Positions 1 through 54,250 of a stretch of 64,000 nucleotides of DNA are shown here, piece after piece. The notes under the pieces were generated by a model. That model did not search any database. It was not told where the DNA came from and saw only the letters and a list, made by a program, of their open reading frames with translations. Both the position numbers and the translations under genes were made by a program. Every line of letters begins with the position of its first letter. Positions within the stretch are counted from its first letter, which is position 1. The stretch is from Thermoproteota archaeon (lineage in GTDB: Archaea; Thermoproteota; EX4484-205; JAAOZP01): contig JBNAVT010000008.1 in assembly GCA_049700215.1 (NCBI GenBank), positions 860 through 64,859 on the forward strand, given 5' to 3'.

Positions 1-1848
1 AGCTTCGAGGAGGAGCTTGTTAGGACGGTTCTGCTAAGCGGCCTAACCGACGCTCAGGCCTTAGACGTGGTCAACACCCTTGCTAGGAACGTTGAGTGGC
101 TCAAGACGTTGAGTAGCAGGAGCATGGTTGAAGCAATCAGAAAAATAACTGATTACGTTGAGAAGGGGGAAATTGCTGAAGAGGCAGTTGAGAGGGTTAA
201 GAGGGAGAGCGAGGAGTACGTTAAGAACGTTAAGCTTGAGATAACCGGGTTCTGCAACTCCATCTCCGACGCCATGCTTGCGAACGAGGTTAATGACCTT
301 CTCAAGCACATCCTAAACGCACTTGGGCCCGATGATGCGAAATGGCTCCTTGACCTCTTGAGGAACGTTTACTACGAGGCACTAACCCAATCCCATGGTA
401 ATAGAGAGTTTGCGAATGCTAAGCTTAGAAGCGTTGTTGAAAGGGTGTTCAAGTATCCCGAGAGCAAGCTGCACGGCTGCAGGCTGGCCTCCGTTAAGAC
501 GTTGCAGCTGAAGAGCCTTGAGGAAGCGATCCTGGGAAAGACGCTGGAAGAAGCCCTTAGCTCGGAGGGCGAAGAGATAGTCGTCGACGGGTTTGAGAAA
601 ACAATACCTGAGTCCGGTTATGTAAGAGGCAGGAGGAAGCTTGAAAAAGGCCTCTACCTGGTTAGGGCGACTAGGAAGGAGGATGGAAAGGTTTTCGAGT
701 GGTCGAGCAGGAAGGAGGAAGATGGCGAAACCTTCGACACTTCGGTTCCAAAGAGATTTTTAAAGGAGCTAGCCGGAAAAGAAGTGGAAATAGCCATCGT
801 CAAATACGATTACTCACTACACTTTAAATTCAAGGGCTCAAACCTCTACTTCAGTCCAAGGGACGGGTTAATGGTGGAAGGAAGGGAGATAGAGTTAGAG
901 AGAGTTGAGCCGCTGAGCTGGAGTGAGAGGCACGGAGCATCAATAAAGGCAAAGCTTAAGCAGAGGAGCATACGTGGAGCCGAAATATACTTCGTGTTCT
1001 TCGAGGACGGAGACTTCGGCATTCTTTTCACCGGAGAATCTACGGATAGAGGAGTATGCAAGGCTACGTTGAGTATTGAAGGAAATTTGCTGATAATAGA
1101 GTACGAAGGTCATAAGTCAATCGTCCCGATCATCGTTCAGGAGTGGAAGGAAGGAGAGAAGTATTACCTTAACATTCTATTGGAGGGGAGGGGAAGGATT
1201 GAACTGGTTGAGAAGCTGAGGGAATTATTCGGATACTACAATACTGAAGCTTTGAGGAAGAAGATTGAGGAAGGCGAGCTAAAGCTGATAGCTTACTTTG
1301 ACAACGGAAAACATGCTACCTGCAGTATTAGAACTCTTGAGATCAACGTGCCTGAGGGGGCTGAGGTGCTGGAGTATATTGTGATTAGATCCTGCTTCAC
1401 ATTCTCAGAAACGCTAAGTGACGAACAGATTGAAGAAATAAAGAAAGCTTCTGATGTAAGACTGGGAGGCTATGGAAGAGATTGGGCTAGGGAAGCGATA
1501 GAGGCTGGTAAGCTCAGTGAAATGGATAAAGTGAAATTCATAAAGAAGGAAGCCTCAATCAAAAACAGAAAGGAGAAAGTAGACCTGGTTTTCATGAGGG
1601 AAGATGGTCGCCTCATAATTGTGGAAGTTAAGACAACCAAGATTTCTGATTACCTTAAGAATTATCTTGAGGATGGCCTGAAAGATTTAGAGGATTACAA
1701 GGCGTTGATTAATGAATATGGTCTCGACCTAGAAGATGTTAATTTGGGCATAAAGAGAGGAGAGGATATCGAAGCCTATGTAAGCATCTCAGTTTATTTC
1801 GATATAGAAAACAAGAAAGTGGACATTATATATAGTGTATTACCTTAG
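1..1848 (+). CDS. hypothetical protein, 5'-partial (frame open to window edge); C-terminal PD-(D/E)xK nuclease-like motif
   Basis: Reading frame is open from nt 1 in phase with the listed 67..1848 ORF. The C-terminal segment VDLVFMREDGRLIIVEVKTTK resembles the core of the restriction-endonuclease-like fold. No other recognisable domain. Confidence 0.45.
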   Translation, partial: SFEEELVRTVLLSGLTDAQALDVVNTLARNVEWLKTLSSRSMVEAIRKITDYVEKGEIAEEAVERVKRESEEYVKNVKLEITGFCNSISDAMLANEVNDLLKHILNALGPDDAKWLLDLLRNVYYEALTQSHGNREFANAKLRSVVERVFKYPESKLHGCRLASVKTLQLKSLEEAILGKTLEEALSSEGEEIVVDGFEKTIPESGYVRGRRKLEKGLYLVRATRKEDGKVFEWSSRKEEDGETFDTSVPKRFLKELAGKEVEIAIVKYDYSLHFKFKGSNLYFSPRDGLMVEGREIELERVEPLSWSERHGASIKAKLKQRSIRGAEIYFVFFEDGDFGILFTGESTDRGVCKATLSIEGNLLIIEYEGHKSIVPIIVQEWKEGEKYYLNILLEGRGRIELVEKLRELFGYYNTEALRKKIEEGELKLIAYFDNGKHATCSIRTLEINVPEGAEVLEYIVIRSCFTFSETLSDEQIEEIKKASDVRLGGYGRDWAREAIEAGKLSEMDKVKFIKKEASIKNRKEKVDLVFMREDGRLIIVEVKTTKISDYLKNYLEDGLKDLEDYKALINEYGLDLEDVNLGIKRGEDIEAYVSISVYFDIENKKVDIIYSVLP

Positions 1849-10178: not shown

Positions 10179-10295
10179 CGCCAGGCCCTCGCAATCAGCA
10201 TCCAACAAATAGTAAACCAATAACCCTCAAGCTTAAGCTCATTAAAGCAACCGGCAACTGAAAAAACTTAATAACCTTCACGAAAAAACACAACC

Positions 10296-10415
10296 GGGCC
10301 CGTCGCCTAACCAGGAAATGGCGGCAGTTTAAAAAAAGAAAAGCCGAGCCCTCTATCACAATGGGAAGAATGTGGGAAAGCTGTAATGATCTGGGTTCAA
10401 ATCCCAGCGGGCCCG
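10296..10415 (+). tRNA. intron-containing tRNA (120 nt gene; exons identical to the tRNA at 49306..49417; anticodon not unambiguously assignable, Arg-like body)
   Basis: GGGCCCG acceptor, GCC/GGC D-stem, CTGGG-TTCAAAT-CCCAG T-arm, 3' CGGGCCC-G. About 50 nt of intervening sequence sits between the GCAG and GCTGT anticodon-stem strands. The antisense ORF 10195..10422 translates to GPLGFEPRS, the tRNA signature. Confidence 0.6.
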
Positions 10416-10601
10416 TTTTCACTTTAGCCTAATTTTCCAGCTTGCTTCGAAAACCTATCGACGCCCTCTGCGACGCTTGGGTTTTTCAACTCCTATTCCT
10501 CTGCTTGCCAGGAATTCGTTCATCATATCTTCGCTTTCAAGCATCATCCCTACTTCAATCATAGCATCCATCCTCCTTAAGACTTACTGATTAACTGCTC
10601 G

Positions 10602-11411
10602 TCACTCAGCAGCATGCTCAGCCTCACCCCTAGCTAGGAATTCGTTCGAACGGTTCTCGAAGGCCTCTGTCAGGGTAAGCATCTCCTCCCTAGCCTTGTC
10701 GGCTTCCGCAACGTCCAAGGCTACTTCGACAAGGTTCGACAGCACACCGAGGCCTAGGAGAAGGTAGTACGCCGGCCTAATATAGGCGTGGGGAATCAGG
10801 AAGCTGATGGCGATCATTACTCCAGCGGTAATCATTATCCCCGGAAGCTTTGTTGCTAAACCGTCCCAGAAGCCCTTCCAAAACATCGTTGCTTTAAGCG
10901 CTAGAGAGACCTTCACCCCAGCGACAACCCTGCCATCCTTAACGAGCTCGAGAACAGCATCTCCGACGGCAGGTTCCTGCTGGACGAGCAGCAGGGAGCT
11001 TGCAGAAGTTTTGTTTAGAGCGACGCTTCCATTCCCCTCTTCAACCTTCGAGAAGAGAAAGAAGAGGCTCATGGTTGTCCTAAGCCTCAGCGAGTAGCTT
11101 ACATTAGTGTTAGCATAGTTTCTCAGTGTTAAGCCGTGAACGAGTTCTCCCTTACTCACCTTCAGCGGATTGTAGAACAGCCTGATGGATTTACACTGAT
11201 CTACAGTTCTATTTGTTACAGCATACTCCCACTCGGTTTCACCGGAGTCGACGAAGATGTTTTTCCCCTTTCTCCATCCGAGTTTCGCAAGCTGCTCATG
11301 CTCCTCAGCTGTGACCCATACTGTTTCATTAGTAACCTTCTCGCCAACAAGCTTTATACTCAAGCTTCTCGGAGCCTTGGTTAGATTCAGCTTCTCGTAG
11401 CGCGCGCCCAT
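10602..11411 (-). CDS. hypothetical surface/membrane glycoprotein (C-terminal TM anchor, many N-x-S/T sequons)
   Basis: 269 aa with multiple NxS/T sequons and a C-terminal hydrophobic helix. Overlaps the upstream ORF by 25 nt in another frame, so the two may be one gene. Confidence 0.4.
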   Translation of the reverse strand: MGARYEKLNLTKAPRSLSIKLVGEKVTNETVWVTAEEHEQLAKLGWRKGKNIFVDSGETEWEYAVTNRTVDQCKSIRLFYNPLKVSKGELVHGLTLRNYANTNVSYSLRLRTTMSLFFLFSKVEEGNGSVALNKTSASSLLLVQQEPAVGDAVLELVKDGRVVAGVKVSLALKATMFWKGFWDGLATKLPGIMITAGVMIAISFLIPHAYIRPAYYLLLGLGVLSNLVEVALDVAEADKAREEMLTLTEAFENRSNEFLARGEAEHAAE

Positions 11412-12049
11412 CCGCCGCCGTGCCCGATGCGGAATAACGCTTGAAAAACATCCCTCTCAACCCTCAGAGTCGCATTGGCACGGATCCAGTGGCAGTCGAC
11501 CCTCATCCCACCTGAGCCTATGTCGTAGACCTTGCGCTCAAGGGTTCTAAGGCTCAGCGAAACACCGTAGGATGAAAGGTTGAAACGTATCTCTGAGAAA
11601 ACCGGCCCATCAAGACCTGGAAGGTAAACGTTGATAACGTTGTTCTTAAGGTCGCCGTTCAAGTCAAGTATTGCTTTATAAAACCCGCCTGGTTCCCTAC
11701 TGCTATAGGCTACGTCGTAAAGGTCTGAGGTTCTGATCGAGACATTGTAGTACTTTGTAGAAGTCACATTATAGAGTTTAACATGTTTCTTAACTCCTTT
11801 CAGCTCGTAGTAGACCGAGGAGAGGGATGAGTTGCATACCACGGGGATTTCGACATAAACCCCGCCGTCCTCAAGGCCGCGGGTAACACGAAGACTAGCA
11901 TAGTCTATTAAAATGGAAACGCCGTCAGCCTCAATCCTCCTTGGAAGACCTAATCCACCTATTGCTCTAACTATCTCCTTTTCGCCGTAGCCGAGGCTTA
12001 TTAATGGGGCTATCGCCATCCAGATCTCGTTGGCGAGGCTAATGTTCAC
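11387..12049 (-). CDS. hypothetical secreted/surface glycoprotein (possibly N-terminal part of the same gene as 10602..11411)
   Basis: 220 aa with many NxS/T sequons. The frame stays open upstream to about 12172 without an ATG. A signal-peptide-like mini-ORF MGVKRKITGVFLTLLILTT... (12269..12153) lies in another frame. Confidence 0.35.
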   Translation of the reverse strand: MNISLANEIWMAIAPLISLGYGEKEIVRAIGGLGLPRRIEADGVSILIDYASLRVTRGLEDGGVYVEIPVVCNSSLSSVYYELKGVKKHVKLYNVTSTKYYNVSIRTSDLYDVAYSSREPGGFYKAILDLNGDLKNNVINVYLPGLDGPVFSEIRFNLSSYGVSLSLRTLERKVYDIGSGGMRVDCHWIRANATLRVERDVFQALFRIGHGGGWARATRS

Positions 12050-12565
12050 TCCTTCCGGGATAACGTAGCTCCGCTCTAGAAGCGGGCCTTCGGGAGGAAC
12101 ACCGTTTTCAAGCTGTCTCCTGAGAACCTCAATATCGCCAGTATTCCAGCCATCAAACAGGTACTGGCCTGACTATTGGCTGAAGCAAGAGCCAAGACGG
12201 CTGTATGAAACTCGTGGTTAGTATGAGAAGAGTAAGAAACACCCCCGTAATCTTCCTCTTAACACCCATGGCTAGGAAACACAGTGGAAAAATGCCTATT
12301 TATAGCATGAAGTAAGCGAAAATTTCCGCTTGCCTTTGGTAAAAAATTTACCGACAGGCGTAAAGCTTCTTTACACAGGATTCCGGCAGAATAGAACTAT
12401 TGTCAACGCCTTGCCTAACCGTTTTAACTCGGCTTAGAAGCAGGTTAAGAACTTGAATGCAGGCTTCCCGCCGGTTTTTAGCGTTCTCAGGGGTTTTTCT
12501 AAGGCTGATAGTTAAGTTTTTTACATGAAAATGCTAAATACTGAGGCTTAGGGCATACCTCGGTC

Positions 12566-13325: not shown

Positions 13326-14402
13326 TTGATTCAGTCGAGCTCTCAGTCAACCCTTGAGGCTAAGCTTCTAACGCTTAAGAATAGGAGTATTGAGGAAGCC
13401 CTATCTGTTTTCGAAGCGCTCTCCAGCAAGACGCCTGAATCTCCTATCGTCATGCTGCATAGCAATAAGAGTAAGGTTATCAGTCTAGGGTGTTTTCAGG
13501 TTGCTGACGAGGATTTTCTAACAGGCTTCCTGCGTAAAAAGGGTTTGAAATACTTCTTCAGGCTTCACGGCGGAGACGTGATGCTTCACGATGAAAACCA
13601 GGTTGGAATAGCGTTGATACTGCCTAGGGATGAGAAGTATGGAGAGACCTATGTTTCCCTAGTGAGCCTCCTGATGAAGAGAAACGGCGTTTCAAATATT
13701 CATGTTACAAACGATTCTATCCTGTGTTTCAACAAGGTTCTCGGGGAAGTGATACACGTGGAGAAGAACGGGTTAGCAAGCTGGTTTACATTCATCTATT
13801 TGAAGAGGAATTTTGAGGAAATGGCTGGCTTAAAATTCCCTAAAGAACAGTTAATTAAAGAAAGGGTTAGCAAGCTTAAGGAGAACTACATAGGGTTAGA
13901 TCAGGTTTTAGAGAAACCGCTTTCTGCAGACGCGTTTTTAGAATCGGTTAAGACGGTTTTGACGGATGACTTGGGCTTCAGAGTAAAGGATTTTAGGCTG
14001 GGGCTTGGAGACAAGAAGCTTTTCTGGAAGAACAGGGACATGCTCAAGAAGAACAGTATTTCTGAGGCTGTTCAACTGAGGCATTCCGCGTTGCTGAAGG
14101 AGGAGGGTGTCCTTCTTCTTTCTAAAAGATTGATGAACGGTTTCCTGCGGATGCGGCTTAAAATCAAGGATAAGACGCTTGAGAAGATCAGCATCTCAGG
14201 GAGCTTTATGTTCGAGCCTCCTGGGAAACTTATAGATTTCGAGAAAATGCTGGAGGGCAAGGAGCTTGACGAGACAGTTTTAACCGAGAAGGTTACGGAA
14301 TTCTTTATTAACGAGAAGATTAAAGCCTCCTTCACCGCGTTCGAAATAGTTGAACTACTGTGTAGCGCAGCCGGTGGCTCTAATGAGCATGGAGAACAGT
14401 AG
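13326..14402 (+). CDS. BPL/LPL catalytic-domain protein (lipoate-protein ligase / octanoyltransferase-like)
   Basis: RLHGGDVMLHDENQVG matches the R-x-(S)GG-x-V-x-HD motif of the LplA/LipB/BirA catalytic family. Confidence 0.45.
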   Translation: MIQSSSQSTLEAKLLTLKNRSIEEALSVFEALSSKTPESPIVMLHSNKSKVISLGCFQVADEDFLTGFLRKKGLKYFFRLHGGDVMLHDENQVGIALILPRDEKYGETYVSLVSLLMKRNGVSNIHVTNDSILCFNKVLGEVIHVEKNGLASWFTFIYLKRNFEEMAGLKFPKEQLIKERVSKLKENYIGLDQVLEKPLSADAFLESVKTVLTDDLGFRVKDFRLGLGDKKLFWKNRDMLKKNSISEAVQLRHSALLKEEGVLLLSKRLMNGFLRMRLKIKDKTLEKISISGSFMFEPPGKLIDFEKMLEGKELDETVLTEKVTEFFINEKIKASFTAFEIVELLCSAAGGSNEHGEQ

Positions 14403-14952
14403 GGAACCCGGGTTTCCAATCGTGGCTGAGAAGAGCCGTGACGAAGTGCATGTTACTGACAGGGATGCTGTTGAGTGGCTTGATTCTAAAGGCTACGGCT
14501 TCAGGTTTAGGGAAGACCTATTAATACTCCGCCCTTTTGAAGCCCTCTACCTTATGAGCCAGAATAAGCTCGTATTATACCACAGGTCTAAACAATTAGT
14601 GTTCAACCAGTATCTTAAGATTCTTGAAAAGACTGATAGCAAGATATGGCTGAGATACTTAATCTATAAGGATCTGAGGGATAAAGGGTATGTTGTTAAA
14701 GACGGCTATGGCTTCGACATAGATTTCAAAGTTTACGAGGCTGGCGACTATGGTTCAAAGCCCGCGAAATACCTTGTATACGGGATTGCTGAGGGAACAC
14801 CCCTCCCTGTCACGAAGCTCTACAATATTCTGCGACACTCCTACTCCCTCCGGAAGACGCTGATAATCGCTACGGTCGACAGGAGGAGTGAAATAGTTTA
14901 TTACATGCTTTCATCCCTGCTTCTCGGGAAAGAGACTAGAGGAGAACAATGA
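14350..14952 (+). CDS. endA: tRNA-splicing endonuclease, catalytic subunit (EndA)
   Basis: C-terminal catalytic motif YLIYKDLRDKGYVVKDGYGFDIDFKVYE ... RHSYSLRKTLIIA with the Tyr/His/Lys triad context. Size about 190 aa; the true start is probably at the internal MSMENS. Confidence 0.8.
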   Translation: MNYCVAQPVALMSMENSREPGFPIVAEKSRDEVHVTDRDAVEWLDSKGYGFRFREDLLILRPFEALYLMSQNKLVLYHRSKQLVFNQYLKILEKTDSKIWLRYLIYKDLRDKGYVVKDGYGFDIDFKVYEAGDYGSKPAKYLVYGIAEGTPLPVTKLYNILRHSYSLRKTLIIATVDRRSEIVYYMLSSLLLGKETRGEQ

Positions 14953-39475: not shown

Positions 39476-39688
39476 TTGGTTAAAACCATAACCATTAGAG
39501 AAGAAGTCTACAGAAGGTTGCTGGCTGTTAAGCGGGAGGGTGAAAGCTTCAGCGAGCTGCTTGAAAGGCTCATCGAGGAAGCGAACCCTGTTGATGTCCT
39601 AGTAAGGCTTAGAGGCTGTGTCGAGATTAAGGACAAGGAGAAGCTTCTCTCAGAAATGTACTCATTAAGGGCTGAACGTAGAACATGA
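39476..39688 (+). CDS. vapB: antitoxin (VapB-like)
   Basis: 70-aa protein overlapping the downstream PIN gene by 4 nt (ATGA). Confidence 0.55.
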   Translation: MVKTITIREEVYRRLLAVKREGESFSELLERLIEEANPVDVLVRLRGCVEIKDKEKLLSEMYSLRAERRT

Positions 39689-40065
39689 TTATTTTAGACA
39701 CTGATATTTTAATCGAGATTTTCGACAAGAAGTCTGCAAAAGGTGAAGAGGCATTGAAGAAAATTATCGAAAAAGATGAGCCAATATGCATAACTGTCGT
39801 CAATCTTCACGAAATCCTCTATGGGTTAAGCAAATACGCTAAGCCGGTGAAGGATGTTTTAAGGCTTCCGGTTTTAAACTATAGGAAGGAAGACGCGATC
39901 CTAGCGTCTGAATTAGAACTGAAAACAGAGCGGAAGGGAAAACCTGTTCGAAGGACAGATGCTATGATAGCTGCCATGACGATCAACAATAACGCGAAAC
40001 TTTACACGTTCAATATGAAGCACTTTAGACCATTAGAAGAACACGGGTTAAAACTTCTACAGTAG
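39685..40065 (+). CDS. vapC: PIN-domain toxin (VapC)
   Basis: N-terminal IILDTDILIE with conserved acidic residues of the PIN fold. Confidence 0.75.
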   Translation: MIILDTDILIEIFDKKSAKGEEALKKIIEKDEPICITVVNLHEILYGLSKYAKPVKDVLRLPVLNYRKEDAILASELELKTERKGKPVRRTDAMIAAMTINNNAKLYTFNMKHFRPLEEHGLKLLQ

Positions 40066-49305: not shown

Positions 49306-49417
49306 CGGGCCCGCTGGGATTTGAACCCAGATCATTACAGCTCTGCTTCCAGCTTCACACTGATAGGAGGCTGCCGCCATTTCTGGGCTTGTGTTGTCCA
49401 GGTTAGGCGACGGGCCC
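49306..49417 (-). tRNA. intron-containing tRNA, putative tRNA-Arg(CCU); D-loop insert + anticodon-region intron
   Basis: Exons are identical to the 10296..10415 gene. The D-loop has about 15 extra nt (TGGACAACACAAGCC). An anticodon stem-loop GCAGC-CTCCTAT-(intron ~21 nt)-GCTGT can form, giving CCU. The antisense reading again gives ...GPLGFEPR... Confidence 0.55.
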
Positions 49418-49835
49418 GTTTGTCTTTTCCTCTTTAGGTCTTTTTATGTTTTCTGCTGTTGTGTGCGTGGTTTTGAACAGCTGGGCTAGTGTCGCGTATT
49501 GTTGCTTTCCTTGTTTCTTGGAGTAGCCTGGTGAAGCGTCTGTGCTTTATGGGTTGGGCTGCGTATTCGTTGCTACTTTTATGCTGATTCTTCGTCACCT
49601 TGTTTTTCTGAAAATTTTGTTGCTTCTGCTGTTTTCACTGTTAACCTTTCCTCTAAGGCTTCTATTCGAGTGTCGACCCCGCGGGCTTCTTTGTTTTAAC
49701 TGGGCTGAAATAATAAGCGGGTAGAAATGCTTGTTGAATAGCCTCGTTAAGGGCTTTTTTAAGATCCATATAGGGGTTGTTTACAAGTCGTCCGGAAGGT
49801 TTAAGTATACATTCTTTATTTGTATACAATAGATA

Positions 49836-50063
49836 ATGTCTACAGAGGTTCTCTCAGTCAGAATAAGCGGGGAGCTAAAGAGAGAAGCTGAAAAATTAGG
49901 CATAGATGTGAAAAGCGTTGTCGAGAGGGCATTGGCCGATGCGGTGGAGCAGGCTAAAAGAAGAAAGCTTGAGGAAGCAATCAATATGCTGTTGAAGGAA
50001 ATGGGAGAAGTCTCTGACGACGAATGGGTAAGGGTAGTAAAGGAATGCCGCAGGGAAAGGTAG
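49836..50063 (+). CDS. antitoxin-like small protein (ribbon-helix-helix-type)
   Basis: 75-aa charged protein overlapping the downstream PIN gene. Confidence 0.45.
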   Translation: MSTEVLSVRISGELKREAEKLGIDVKSVVERALADAVEQAKRRKLEEAINMLLKEMGEVSDDEWVRVVKECRRER

Positions 50064-50461
50064 AGGCGGTTTTAGACACTTCAGCGCTATACCCCTTGCT
50101 TAAAAAACTAGGCGGGGGAGCTGCCTCATTATTGATGAGGCTTCTGATCCTTGATCTGACTAAGTATGAGTTGGGAAACATAGGTTGGAAAGAGTATAAA
50201 CTGGGGCACGTGAAAAATTGGGAGAGTCTGATGGAGCGATGGTCGAAAATAATAAGAGAGCTACCAGAGTATTCAATAGGCGTGGAGCATCTTAAAGAGG
50301 TGGGTGAGATCGCGGTTGAAAGGGGATTGTCGTTTTACGATGCTTCATATGTCTACGTGGCGGAGAAGCTGAACCTGAAGCTGATAACTGAAGACGAGGA
50401 AATGCTTAATAAATGTAAAAACTCAGTAGCTTTAGACAAGTTTCTAAAAACCAAGTCTTAG
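50024..50461 (+). CDS. PIN-domain toxin (VapC-like); true start probably internal Met (about 50045)
   Basis: AVLDTSAL...FYDASYVYVAEKLNLKLITEDEEM has the conserved PIN acidic residues. Confidence 0.7.
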   Translation: MGKGSKGMPQGKVEAVLDTSALYPLLKKLGGGAASLLMRLLILDLTKYELGNIGWKEYKLGHVKNWESLMERWSKIIRELPEYSIGVEHLKEVGEIAVERGLSFYDASYVYVAEKLNLKLITEDEEMLNKCKNSVALDKFLKTKS

Positions 50462-50604: not shown

Positions 50605-50727
50605 GCGGAGGTAGCCAAGGCTGGTCAAACGGGACTAGACTAAAGGCGCTGGACTTAAGATCCAGTCCCGCAGACGCGGAATCACCGCGCGCGGAAGGGT
50701 TCGTGGGTTCAAATCCCACCCTCCGCA
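50605..50727 (+). tRNA. tRNA-Leu(UAA) with two non-canonical introns (D-loop and variable arm)
   Basis: GCGGAGG-TA-GCC...GCTGGTCAAA[insert]AAGGCGC-TGGAC-TTAAGAT-CCAG... long variable arm with insert ...GTGGG-TTCAAAT-CCCAC-CCTCCGC-A. Gene is 123 nt versus about 88 nt expected for the mature tRNA. Confidence 0.7.
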
Positions 50728-53785: not shown

Positions 53786-54174
53786 GGCTCTACTCCAAGT
53801 GCTTACAAGGGCTTCAAGGAGTTTGAAGAGTAGTATTACCCGGGAAGGCTGTGCGGCTTTGACGGTTGCAGGGATTGCTGTAACTATACCTATGTCGACG
53901 ATCTACTATTCTTCTCATAGCACGCACTAGACCGTTTTCTCGGCTTAGTAAATAGAGGACTGGTAGAGAGAAACCTGGCGAAATGACTGTGGGCTATGAG
54001 TTGATTTGGGGAGAAATTGACGATTATTATGAAGACATAAGCGTGCAGAAGGATGAAGCCTTAATATGGTTTAGACGGAAGCCTCTAGAAGTAAAAACTT
54101 GAAGCTTATTATTTGACTGTTATTCAACAAGCTTCTATTGATATGCATAGTGTTAATTTATTTGAGGAAAAAGT

Positions 54175-54250
54175 AGCGGGGGGTCGATTTGAACGACCGA
54201 TCTCAGGGTTATGAGCCCTGCGGCATAGACCTGGCTAGCCCACCCCGCTA
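54175..54250 (-). tRNA. initiator tRNA-Met (CAU), intron-less
   Basis: AGCGGGG-TG-GGCT..., A1:U72, anticodon arm CAGGG-CTCATAA-CCCTG with three G:C pairs, T-arm GGTCG-TTCAAAT-CGACC, discriminator A. Total 76 nt. Confidence 0.8.

Follow-up and report, generated by a model that had tools for sequence, protein, structure and literature searches.

Two arginine tRNA genes with two short introns each, and a C33 anticodon loop, in a Brockarchaeota-like archaeon

The 64,000-nucleotide stretch of DNA analysed here (termed the window) contains two full-length tRNA genes, which lie 39 kb apart and in opposite orientation. Copy 1 spans 10296..10415 on the forward strand (120 nt), and copy 2 spans 49417..49306 on the reverse strand (112 nt). 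Judged from their sequences and those of their relatives, both loci are very probably functional genes, each transcribed on its own, which provide a Brockarchaeota-like archaeon with its two AGR-decoding arginine tRNAs. The primary transcript of each gene would carry two short introns, recognised through a bulge-helix-bulge (BHB) or a relaxed BHB. The archaeal splicing endonuclease would cleave every bulge between its nucleotides 2 and 3, the exons would be ligated, and CCA would be added after splicing. Copy 1 would lose one intron in the anticodon stem (intron A, at 30/31) and one at 37/38 (intron B) to yield tRNA-Arg(UCU) with the loop CCUCUAA and thus with C33, and removal of one intron from the D-loop (20a/21) and of another from 37/38 would turn the transcript of copy 2 into tRNA-Arg(CCU) with the loop CUCCUAA. 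Spliced in silico, each copy indeed forms a 76-nt cloverleaf with the respective 7-nt anticodon loop, and ARAGORN calls the products Arg(tct) (score 109.6, copy 1) and Arg(cct) (score 114.9, copy 2). The two products differ at only four positions (17a, 20a, 33 and 34). Both have the G27oU43 pair, and both contain C35, U36 and A20 (the D-loop GGA being G18 G19 A20), which are known arginine identity elements. The pair is a further case of the multi-intron tRNA genes already known from archaea.

The coordinates of all elements are listed in the table below. A first-pass annotation of this DNA had proposed that the two loci share identical exon blocks and are arginine isoacceptor genes of one family, distinguished mainly by their intron content. 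Our analysis confirms this: the coordinates are exact, and the blocks GGGCCCGTCGCCTAACC, AAATGGCGGCAG and AGCTGTAATGATCTGGGTTCAAATCCCAGCGGGCCCG are identical between the two copies. By the splice sites placed here, the first two A's of AAATGGCGGCAG belong to an intron in copy 2.

Table. Elements of the two arginine tRNA genes and the linked endonuclease gene (positions refer to the window)
Feature	Position	Strand	Remarks
Promoter-like box ctgaaaaaacttaataacc	10258..10276	+	BRE/TATA-like, about -38 to -20 of the UCU gene
Copy 1 exon 1 (tRNA 1-30)	10296..10327	+	invariant in orthologues except D-loop 17a, 20a
Copy 1 intron A, 21 nt, 30/31 (anticodon stem)	10328..10348	+	BHB in register
Copy 1 exon 2, CCCTCTA (tRNA 31-37: C31 C32 C33 U34 C35 U36 A37)	10349..10355	+	invariant in 26/26 UCU genes
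Copy 1 intron B, 23 nt, canonical 37/38	10356..10378	+	BHB central helix 3/4
Copy 1 exon 3 (tRNA 38-73)	10379..10415	+	CCA not encoded
Likely terminator TTTT	10416-10419	+	directly 3' of copy 1
EndA-family gene	14383..14952	+	PF02778 and PF01974; about 4 kb downstream of copy 1
Promoter-like box cagaaaacataaaaag	49440..49455	-	CCU gene; cagaaaatataaaaag-type
Copy 2 exon 1 (tRNA 1-20a)	49396..49417	-	intron-less D-loop GGACAUGG of L009 matches the predicted junction
Copy 2 D-loop intron, 15 nt, 20a/21	49381..49395	-	central helix 4/4
Copy 2 exon 2 (tRNA 21-37, including loop CUCCUA)	49364..49380	-	identical to intron-less CCU genes such as L017
Copy 2 intron B, 21 nt, canonical 37/38	49343..49363	-	poor BHB, 1/4 in strict register
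Copy 2 exon 3 (tRNA 38-73)	49306..49342	-	followed by TTTT

Orthologous genes and the placing of the introns

We scanned the GTDB species genomes with the shared 3' exon, which recovered 34 loci, and a scan of metagenomes with a gapped pattern added 11 further loci. Nearly all of the 34 GTDB loci are found in hot-spring or sediment genome bins labelled Brockarchaeota, Thermoproteota, 'Nitrososphaerota' or 'Thaumarchaeota'. In total 42 genes were parsed (26 UCU and 16 CCU), corresponding to 40 relatives and the two window copies. The LeuRS encoded in the window is 96.6% identical to that of a metagenome contig (L045), 92% to that of L021 and 89% to that of a Ca. Brockarchaeota bin (L004). We therefore consider the organism to be Brockarchaeota-like rather than a member of Thermofilum/Thermoproteales, the lineage suggested for comparison in the first-pass annotation.

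Seven relatives have intron-less CCU genes of 76 nt (GGGCCCGTCGCCTAACCTGGATATGGCGGCAGCCTCCTAAGCTGTAAT[A/G]ATCTGGGTTCAAATCCCAGCGGGCCCG, with the loop CUCCUAA), and the mature CCU sequence can thus be read directly; the intron-less gene of L017 scores 55 bits with the Rfam tRNA model RF00005. These orthologues, together with the ARAGORN call for the spliced product, corroborate the anticodon CCU proposed earlier for copy 2. They also correct the loop, which had been given as CUCCUAU and is CUCCUAA, since A38 is supplied by the 3' exon. Comparison of genes with and without the D-loop insert shows how it is removed, namely as CTGG[AC|A]...C(C/T)AG[AA|A]TGG, which means that the cuts fall between nucleotides 2 and 3 of each of the 3-nt bulges flanking a 4-bp helix. 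This rule leaves the D-loop GGAUAUGG or GGACAUGG, exactly the intron-less forms, and all four window introns were placed by it.

The 26 UCU genes all consist of an invariant GGCAG, a variable intron and an invariant CCCTCTA. Intron B at 37/38 is present in 14 of them and absent from the other 12, in which CCCTCTA runs straight into AGCTGT, so that they read GGCAG|CCCTCTAAGCTGT. These 12 orthologues fix the register of copy 1: a 5-bp stem with a 7-nt loop is obtained only from C31 followed by C32 C33 U34 C35 U36 A37 A38, and the anticodon is therefore UCU and position 33 a C. It had been thought that copy 1 could give UCU by way of two introns or, alternatively, of an unusual C33. The anticodon was correct, but two introns and C33 are both present. 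We also considered splice sites shifted by one nucleotide, which would turn copy 1 into an amber-suppressor-like tRNA (CUA). A cloverleaf can be folded from the shifted product, which ARAGORN calls 'Pyl(cta)' with a score of 117.2. However, the shifted cuts lie outside the BHB register and would leave a 6-nt loop in the 12 orthologues without intron B, whose sequence is given above. We rejected this reading, to which we give next to no credence.

With the splice sites in place, the earlier description of the intervening sequences as long and non-canonical holds for the sites but not for the length: the introns measure 15-23 nt, and one in each gene is at the canonical position 37/38. The approximately 50 nt regarded as intervening sequence in copy 1 resolve into a 21-nt intron, the 7-nt exon CCCTCTA and a 23-nt intron. 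In copy 2 the D-loop insert of about 15 nt had been recognised correctly, whereas the further 30 nt or so are made up of the 7-nt CCTCCTA and a 21-nt intron.

A tRNA fold for copy 1 is supported before as well as after removal of the introns. The unspliced gene already scores 37.4 bits with RF00005 (gathering score 29), 47 nt being read as an anticodon-loop insertion, and the high ARAGORN score of the spliced product is given above. Copy 2 is not matched by the Rfam tRNA model, either at the gathering score or at E<=1. With default settings, ARAGORN calls neither arginine copy in the window, and its sole call is an initiator-like tRNA-Met. If introns are allowed, it calls Pro(GGG) and Asp(AUC), which are artefacts with wrong stems.

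Splicing motifs, expression signals and integrity of the two copies

In a single 120-nt sequence a generic BHB-like pattern is not significant, as it is present in 36-42% of shuffles. Our argument rests, therefore, on the register and on the comparison with relatives. Only 0.25% of intron shuffles yield a 4/4 central helix in register, as found for intron A. In all 26 UCU genes (window included) the 30/31 intron has a 4/4 central helix, even though these introns vary from 12 to 23 nt and comprise 19 distinct sequences; their 3' strand is only ever GCCG, GTCG or GCTG, each of which can pair with the exonic CGGC. D-loop introns have a 4/4 central helix in 9/9 genes, and introns at 37/38 one of 3-4/4 in 21/22 genes (window included in both counts), the exception being window copy 2. 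Minimum-energy folding of whole precursors was discarded as a criterion, as it does not reliably reproduce the BHBs, even in relatives with good motifs.

The BHB of copy 1 intron A has the central helix CGGC/GCCG (4/4), the bulges AG|U and AG|C and an outer helix of G24-C32 and G23-C33, while inner A-U pairing is weak or absent. That of intron B uses the anticodon stem as its outer helix and has an inner helix of 2 bp. The D-loop intron of copy 2, CTGG[AC|A]acacaagcCCAG[AA|A]TGG, lacks a contiguous outer helix and is of a relaxed, BHL-like type. In these three introns the junctions lie in a bulge or loop flanking a 4-bp helix (BHB, hBH, HBh' or BHL), and in copy 2 intron B they do so in a relaxed form only. 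From the conserved boundaries and registers we infer that the transcripts of both copies are spliced.

Candidate expression signals are conserved as well. A ctgaaaaWtttaata box is found at the same upstream distance in 19 of the 26 UCU genes and a related ttaacaTTTTTAAcc in the other seven, and all 16 CCU genes have a box of the cagaaaatataaaaag type at the same upstream distance. The box of the UCU gene is presumably an archaeal TATA/BRE element. A T-run is found downstream of each gene type. Moreover, AGA and AGG make up 30% and 50%, together 80%, of the 782 arginine codons in 28 long ORFs of the window, which implies that both tRNAs are needed. No other UCU gene is present within the window.

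The UCU gene is part of a conserved alaS-leuS-tRNA-PRTase-LplA-EndA-HisRS block, and the order alaS-leuS-tRNA(UCU) is kept in about 25 loci, whose LeuRS are 74-97% identical. Between the 3' end of copy 1 and a point approximately 100 nt before the conserved PRTase gene lies a segment of about 2 kb (10420..12460) that is unique to the window. It has two minus-strand ORFs (10602..11411 and 11387..12049), which have no Pfam, PADLOC or PHROG matches and no counterpart in 45 related loci. We found no att-like repeat in this segment and, with respect to an att-type duplication, no tRNA-derived partial repeat bounding it.

The first-pass annotation had also suggested that one of the two copies may be decaying. 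For copy 1 we find no support for this; as far as its sequence tells, it shows no sign of decay. Its exons are invariant, its BHBs are intact, and its promoter-like box and neighbouring genes are conserved. A decaying pseudogene, in which the odd CCCTCTA and the long insert reflect lost function, might be suspected from C33, which is abnormal in an elongator tRNA (PMC5041475), from the failure of ARAGORN to call the gene and from the D-loop CCAGGAAAUGG, unique in our set at two variable positions, whose substitutions A17a and A20a are found in no other orthologue. However, the architecture, that is CCCTCTA with its C33 and a 30/31 intron with an intact BHB, recurs in 26/26 orthologues, down to a LeuRS identity of about 74%. 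Together with the conserved box, the score of the unspliced gene above the Rfam gathering threshold and the codon demand (AGA being 30% of arginine codons, with copy 1 as the only UCU gene within the window), this makes a pseudogene highly improbable. The odd D-loop of copy 1 could equally stem from imprecise deletion of a D-loop intron or from two point mutations, both routes requiring the same number of changes.

If either copy is a weakened gene, it is copy 2 and not copy 1. In the strict register its intron B forms just one of the four central base pairs, compared to 3-4/4 for the other 21 introns at 37/38, and it is thus the poorest BHB among these 22 introns. Its minimum-energy fold is a continuous rod without 3-nt bulges; the best BHB-like alternative is a relaxed form whose 3' bulge has 4 nt, and it lies 8 kcal/mol above this rod. 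Copy 2 might accordingly be an impaired gene whose 37/38 intron has drifted out of the BHB register and is spliced poorly or wrongly. We regard this as decidedly unlikely, since the exons, the BHB of the D-loop intron and the promoter-like box are all intact and AGG is the commonest arginine codon (50%). Furthermore, some relatives with good BHBs also give rod-like minimum-energy folds, which means that folding energies are not decisive, and one or two extra A's could be assembly errors. Finally, broad-specificity (alpha-beta)2 endonucleases reportedly tolerate bulges of 1-4 nt and motifs without one of the bulges (PMC3239211). For this reason intron B of copy 2, the weakest element of the pair, is treated here as probably relaxed rather than dead.

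C33 and the intron in the anticodon stem

Elongator tRNAs almost universally have U33, with rare exceptions (PMC5041475). Copy 2 conforms to this, but copy 1 does not. Within our set the identity of position 33 follows the anticodon-stem intron: 26/26 UCU genes have both the 30/31 intron and C33, whereas 16/16 CCU genes lack this intron and have U33. The intron-less UCU gene of L039, a single case from a distant lineage, likewise has no 30/31 intron and U33. We found no intron-less gene with C33, although the search pattern would have admitted one, and all ten distinct intron-less tRNAs in the loci examined have U33.

A possible reason for this association lies in the BHB itself. The sole outer helix of the 30/31 motif would consist of C32 paired with G24 and C33 paired with G23, and the intron would in this way hold position 33 as C. 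That splicing of the 30/31 intron selects for C33 is our leading guess, which is reasonable but unproven. The association could equally reflect a single ancestral event, and it is therefore no proof of a functional link. It is possible, though we put it forward only tentatively, that we are looking at a tRNA intron, independent of any spliceosome, that constrains the sequence of the mature tRNA. The 30/31 intron would need C32 and C33 and thereby fix a C in a heavily used elongator, and either the ribosome would tolerate C33 or the C would be edited to U. If this is true, a C33 loop is tolerated by an archaeal ribosome at a major codon, or there is a new editing site in archaeal tRNA. The combination of C33 with a fixed intron in the anticodon stem of a major tRNA is unusual and apparently undescribed.

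Editing can also be considered on its own. C33 might exist only in the genome and be deaminated to U after transcription or splicing, so that the mature tRNA has a normal U33. C-to-U editing is known in archaeal tRNA at position 8, and it may be the precursor alone that requires C33, as part of the outer helix in its 30/31 BHB. However, no deaminase candidate was seen in the window, and we know of no editing at tRNA position 33 in archaea. The near-universality of U33 in elongators (PMC5041475) is in favour of editing. On the other hand, the tRNA-Cys(GCA) of Sulfolobales also encodes C33, and editing of it is unreported (PMC7668247). On balance we think it rather unlikely that C33 is removed in this way.

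The Sulfolobales tRNA-Cys(GCA) resembles the UCU genes described here in that it is an archaeal elongator that encodes C33 together with G27oU43 (PMC7668247). It is, however, specific for another amino acid and belongs to another lineage, and a link to an intron is unreported there. Moreover, the CCU paralogue in the window differs from it in combining G27oU43 with U33. Other rare departures from U33, comparable to copy 1, are the initiator tRNA-Met of multicellular eukaryotes (C33) and the tRNA-Ser(CAG) of Candida (G33) (PMC5041475, PMC8887486). Initiator tRNA binds directly to the P site, whereas the tRNA encoded by copy 1 must serve as an elongator at AGA, which accounts for 18 per 1000 codons. 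C33 also blocks the formation of t6A37 by the yeast and E. coli enzymes (PMC8887486). The strict coupling of C33 to the fixed 30/31 intron, in what is the main decoder of AGA, poses a testable question: can the structure required for splicing of an intron override one of the most conserved nucleotides of tRNA, or is C33 edited?

Splicing endonuclease, related systems and intron turnover

The EndA homologue encoded downstream of copy 1 comprises the N-terminal and the catalytic domain and scores 79.9 bits with TIGR00324, which is above the cutoff. Its best match among solved structures is the alpha4 enzyme of M. jannaschii. In the alignment to 1a79 the catalytic Tyr and Lys are kept, but the catalytic His is replaced by Pro (KEHSVY in M. 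jannaschii versus SKPAKY). The same replacement is found in 20/21 close orthologues, the remaining one (L019) being unparsed as the motif search did not match it. A profile search over 1.84 billion representatives revealed a large His-less subfamily, and only 4 of the 101 single-unit EndA sequences examined (search matches and earlier homologues) have Tyr-His-Lys, the M. jannaschii reference among them. Neither the window nor 48 related loci (~420 kb) contain a second EndA paralogue or a catalytic partner. A group of EndA sequences with 45-48% identity was considered as paralogues but rejected, as its members are orthologues in the same gene neighbourhood.

Judging by the missing His, the protein, which is the sole EndA homologue encoded in the window, is probably a structural (beta-like) subunit of a heteromeric enzyme, for which a catalytic partner has to be postulated in another part of the genome. 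Such an assignment would agree with the known association of (alpha-beta)2 enzymes with disrupted tRNA genes (PMC4090602, PMC5829648). Both (alpha-beta)2 and epsilon2 enzymes are reported to cut relaxed BHBs that have bulges of 1-4 nt and lie at non-canonical sites (PMC3239211, PMC3241643, PMC5829648). A His-less EndA homologue 4 kb from its likely substrate provides an entry point to the endonuclease architecture of this lineage.

A third disrupted tRNA gene, Leu(UAA), is located at 50605..50727 on the forward strand. Its two introns, one of 15 nt in the D-loop (50629..50643) and one of 23 nt in the variable arm (50674..50696), each have a 4/4 BHB central helix, and ARAGORN scores the spliced 85-nt product at 119.4. 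Neither ARAGORN nor the Rfam tRNA model (gathering score or E<=1) detects the unspliced gene, for which Rfam gives only an 18-nt T-arm match to the tmRNA model. Two PIN-domain ORFs are encoded on the forward strand, at 39685..40065 and 50024..50461. The latter is flanked by the Arg(CCU) and Leu(UAA) tRNA genes, and in several relatives it is found beside the CCU gene too. The remaining tRNA, tRNA-Met at 54174..54249 on the reverse strand, is intron-less and scores 58.4 bits; it is presumably of the initiator type, as marked by A1-U72 and three G-C pairs at the base of the anticodon stem. It is the only undisrupted one of the four tRNA genes in the window, the other three having two introns each. 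ARAGORN missed all three two-intron tRNAs and the Rfam gathering scan two of them. The tRNA complements of Brockarchaeota-like bins, and completeness estimates based on tRNAs, are therefore probably understated.

According to Sugahara et al. 2008 and Fujishima et al. 2010, as quoted in PMC4033280 and PMC4090602, the multi-intron tRNA genes of Thermoproteales and other Crenarchaeota resemble the pair described here: they have up to three short introns at canonical and non-canonical sites, use strict or relaxed BHBs and are missed by standard tRNA finders. Similar introns are, in the same accounts, common to different tRNA genes of one genome, as is the case here. In contrast to these systems, the present pair belongs to a Brockarchaeota-like lineage, and none of the UCU genes of the clade lacks the 30/31 intron, which is coupled to C33. 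In the literature searched we found no description of tRNA introns in Brockarchaeota. Heavy disruption of tRNA genes, well described for Thermoproteales, thus extends to a Brockarchaeota-like lineage.

The tRNA-Thr isoacceptors of Aeropyrum pernix are comparable to the arginine pair in that intron positions differ between isoacceptors and include a D-loop intron (PMC3241643). There the introns, which have BHBs in the anticodon loop and the D-loop, are cut by a broad-specificity (alpha-beta)2 EndA. Splicing was demonstrated in vivo and in vitro in A. pernix (PMC3241643), whereas for the arginine pair it is predicted. The two enzymes also differ, as the A. pernix EndA has a Crenarchaea-specific loop (PMC3241643). 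The window homologue, which lacks the catalytic His, has no such insertion in the corresponding region; over the aligned stretch it is equal in length to the M. jannaschii enzyme, in which the loop is absent.

While the exons of the family are invariant, its introns diverge fast: the intron A sequences of the window and of L045 are clearly different, in spite of LeuRS that are 96.6% identical. UCU and CCU paralogues from the same genome were found in other cases as well. On one contig (L010 and L022) the two genes have identical D-loop introns, and on another (L018 and L025) only the CCU gene has a D-loop intron, as in the window. This suggests gene conversion or intron transfer between the paralogues, combined with intron loss; intron transfer between paralogues has been proposed for Thermoproteales (PMC4033280). 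L021 and L031, from one bin, are a further UCU/CCU pair. In L014 (Bathyarchaeia) the same 26-nt tRNA 3' end is found at ~1365..1390 on the reverse strand, with no recognisable 5' half within 200 nt upstream, and this locus could be a differently disrupted or split tRNA gene. Finally, a metagenomic UCU orthologue (L036, 3447..3570) has an extra T-loop intron of ~29 nt, GGGTTCAAA[AAGGCCCCTGGAAACAGGGATCTGGGAA]ATCCCAG, which brings the intron positions in this family to at least four.
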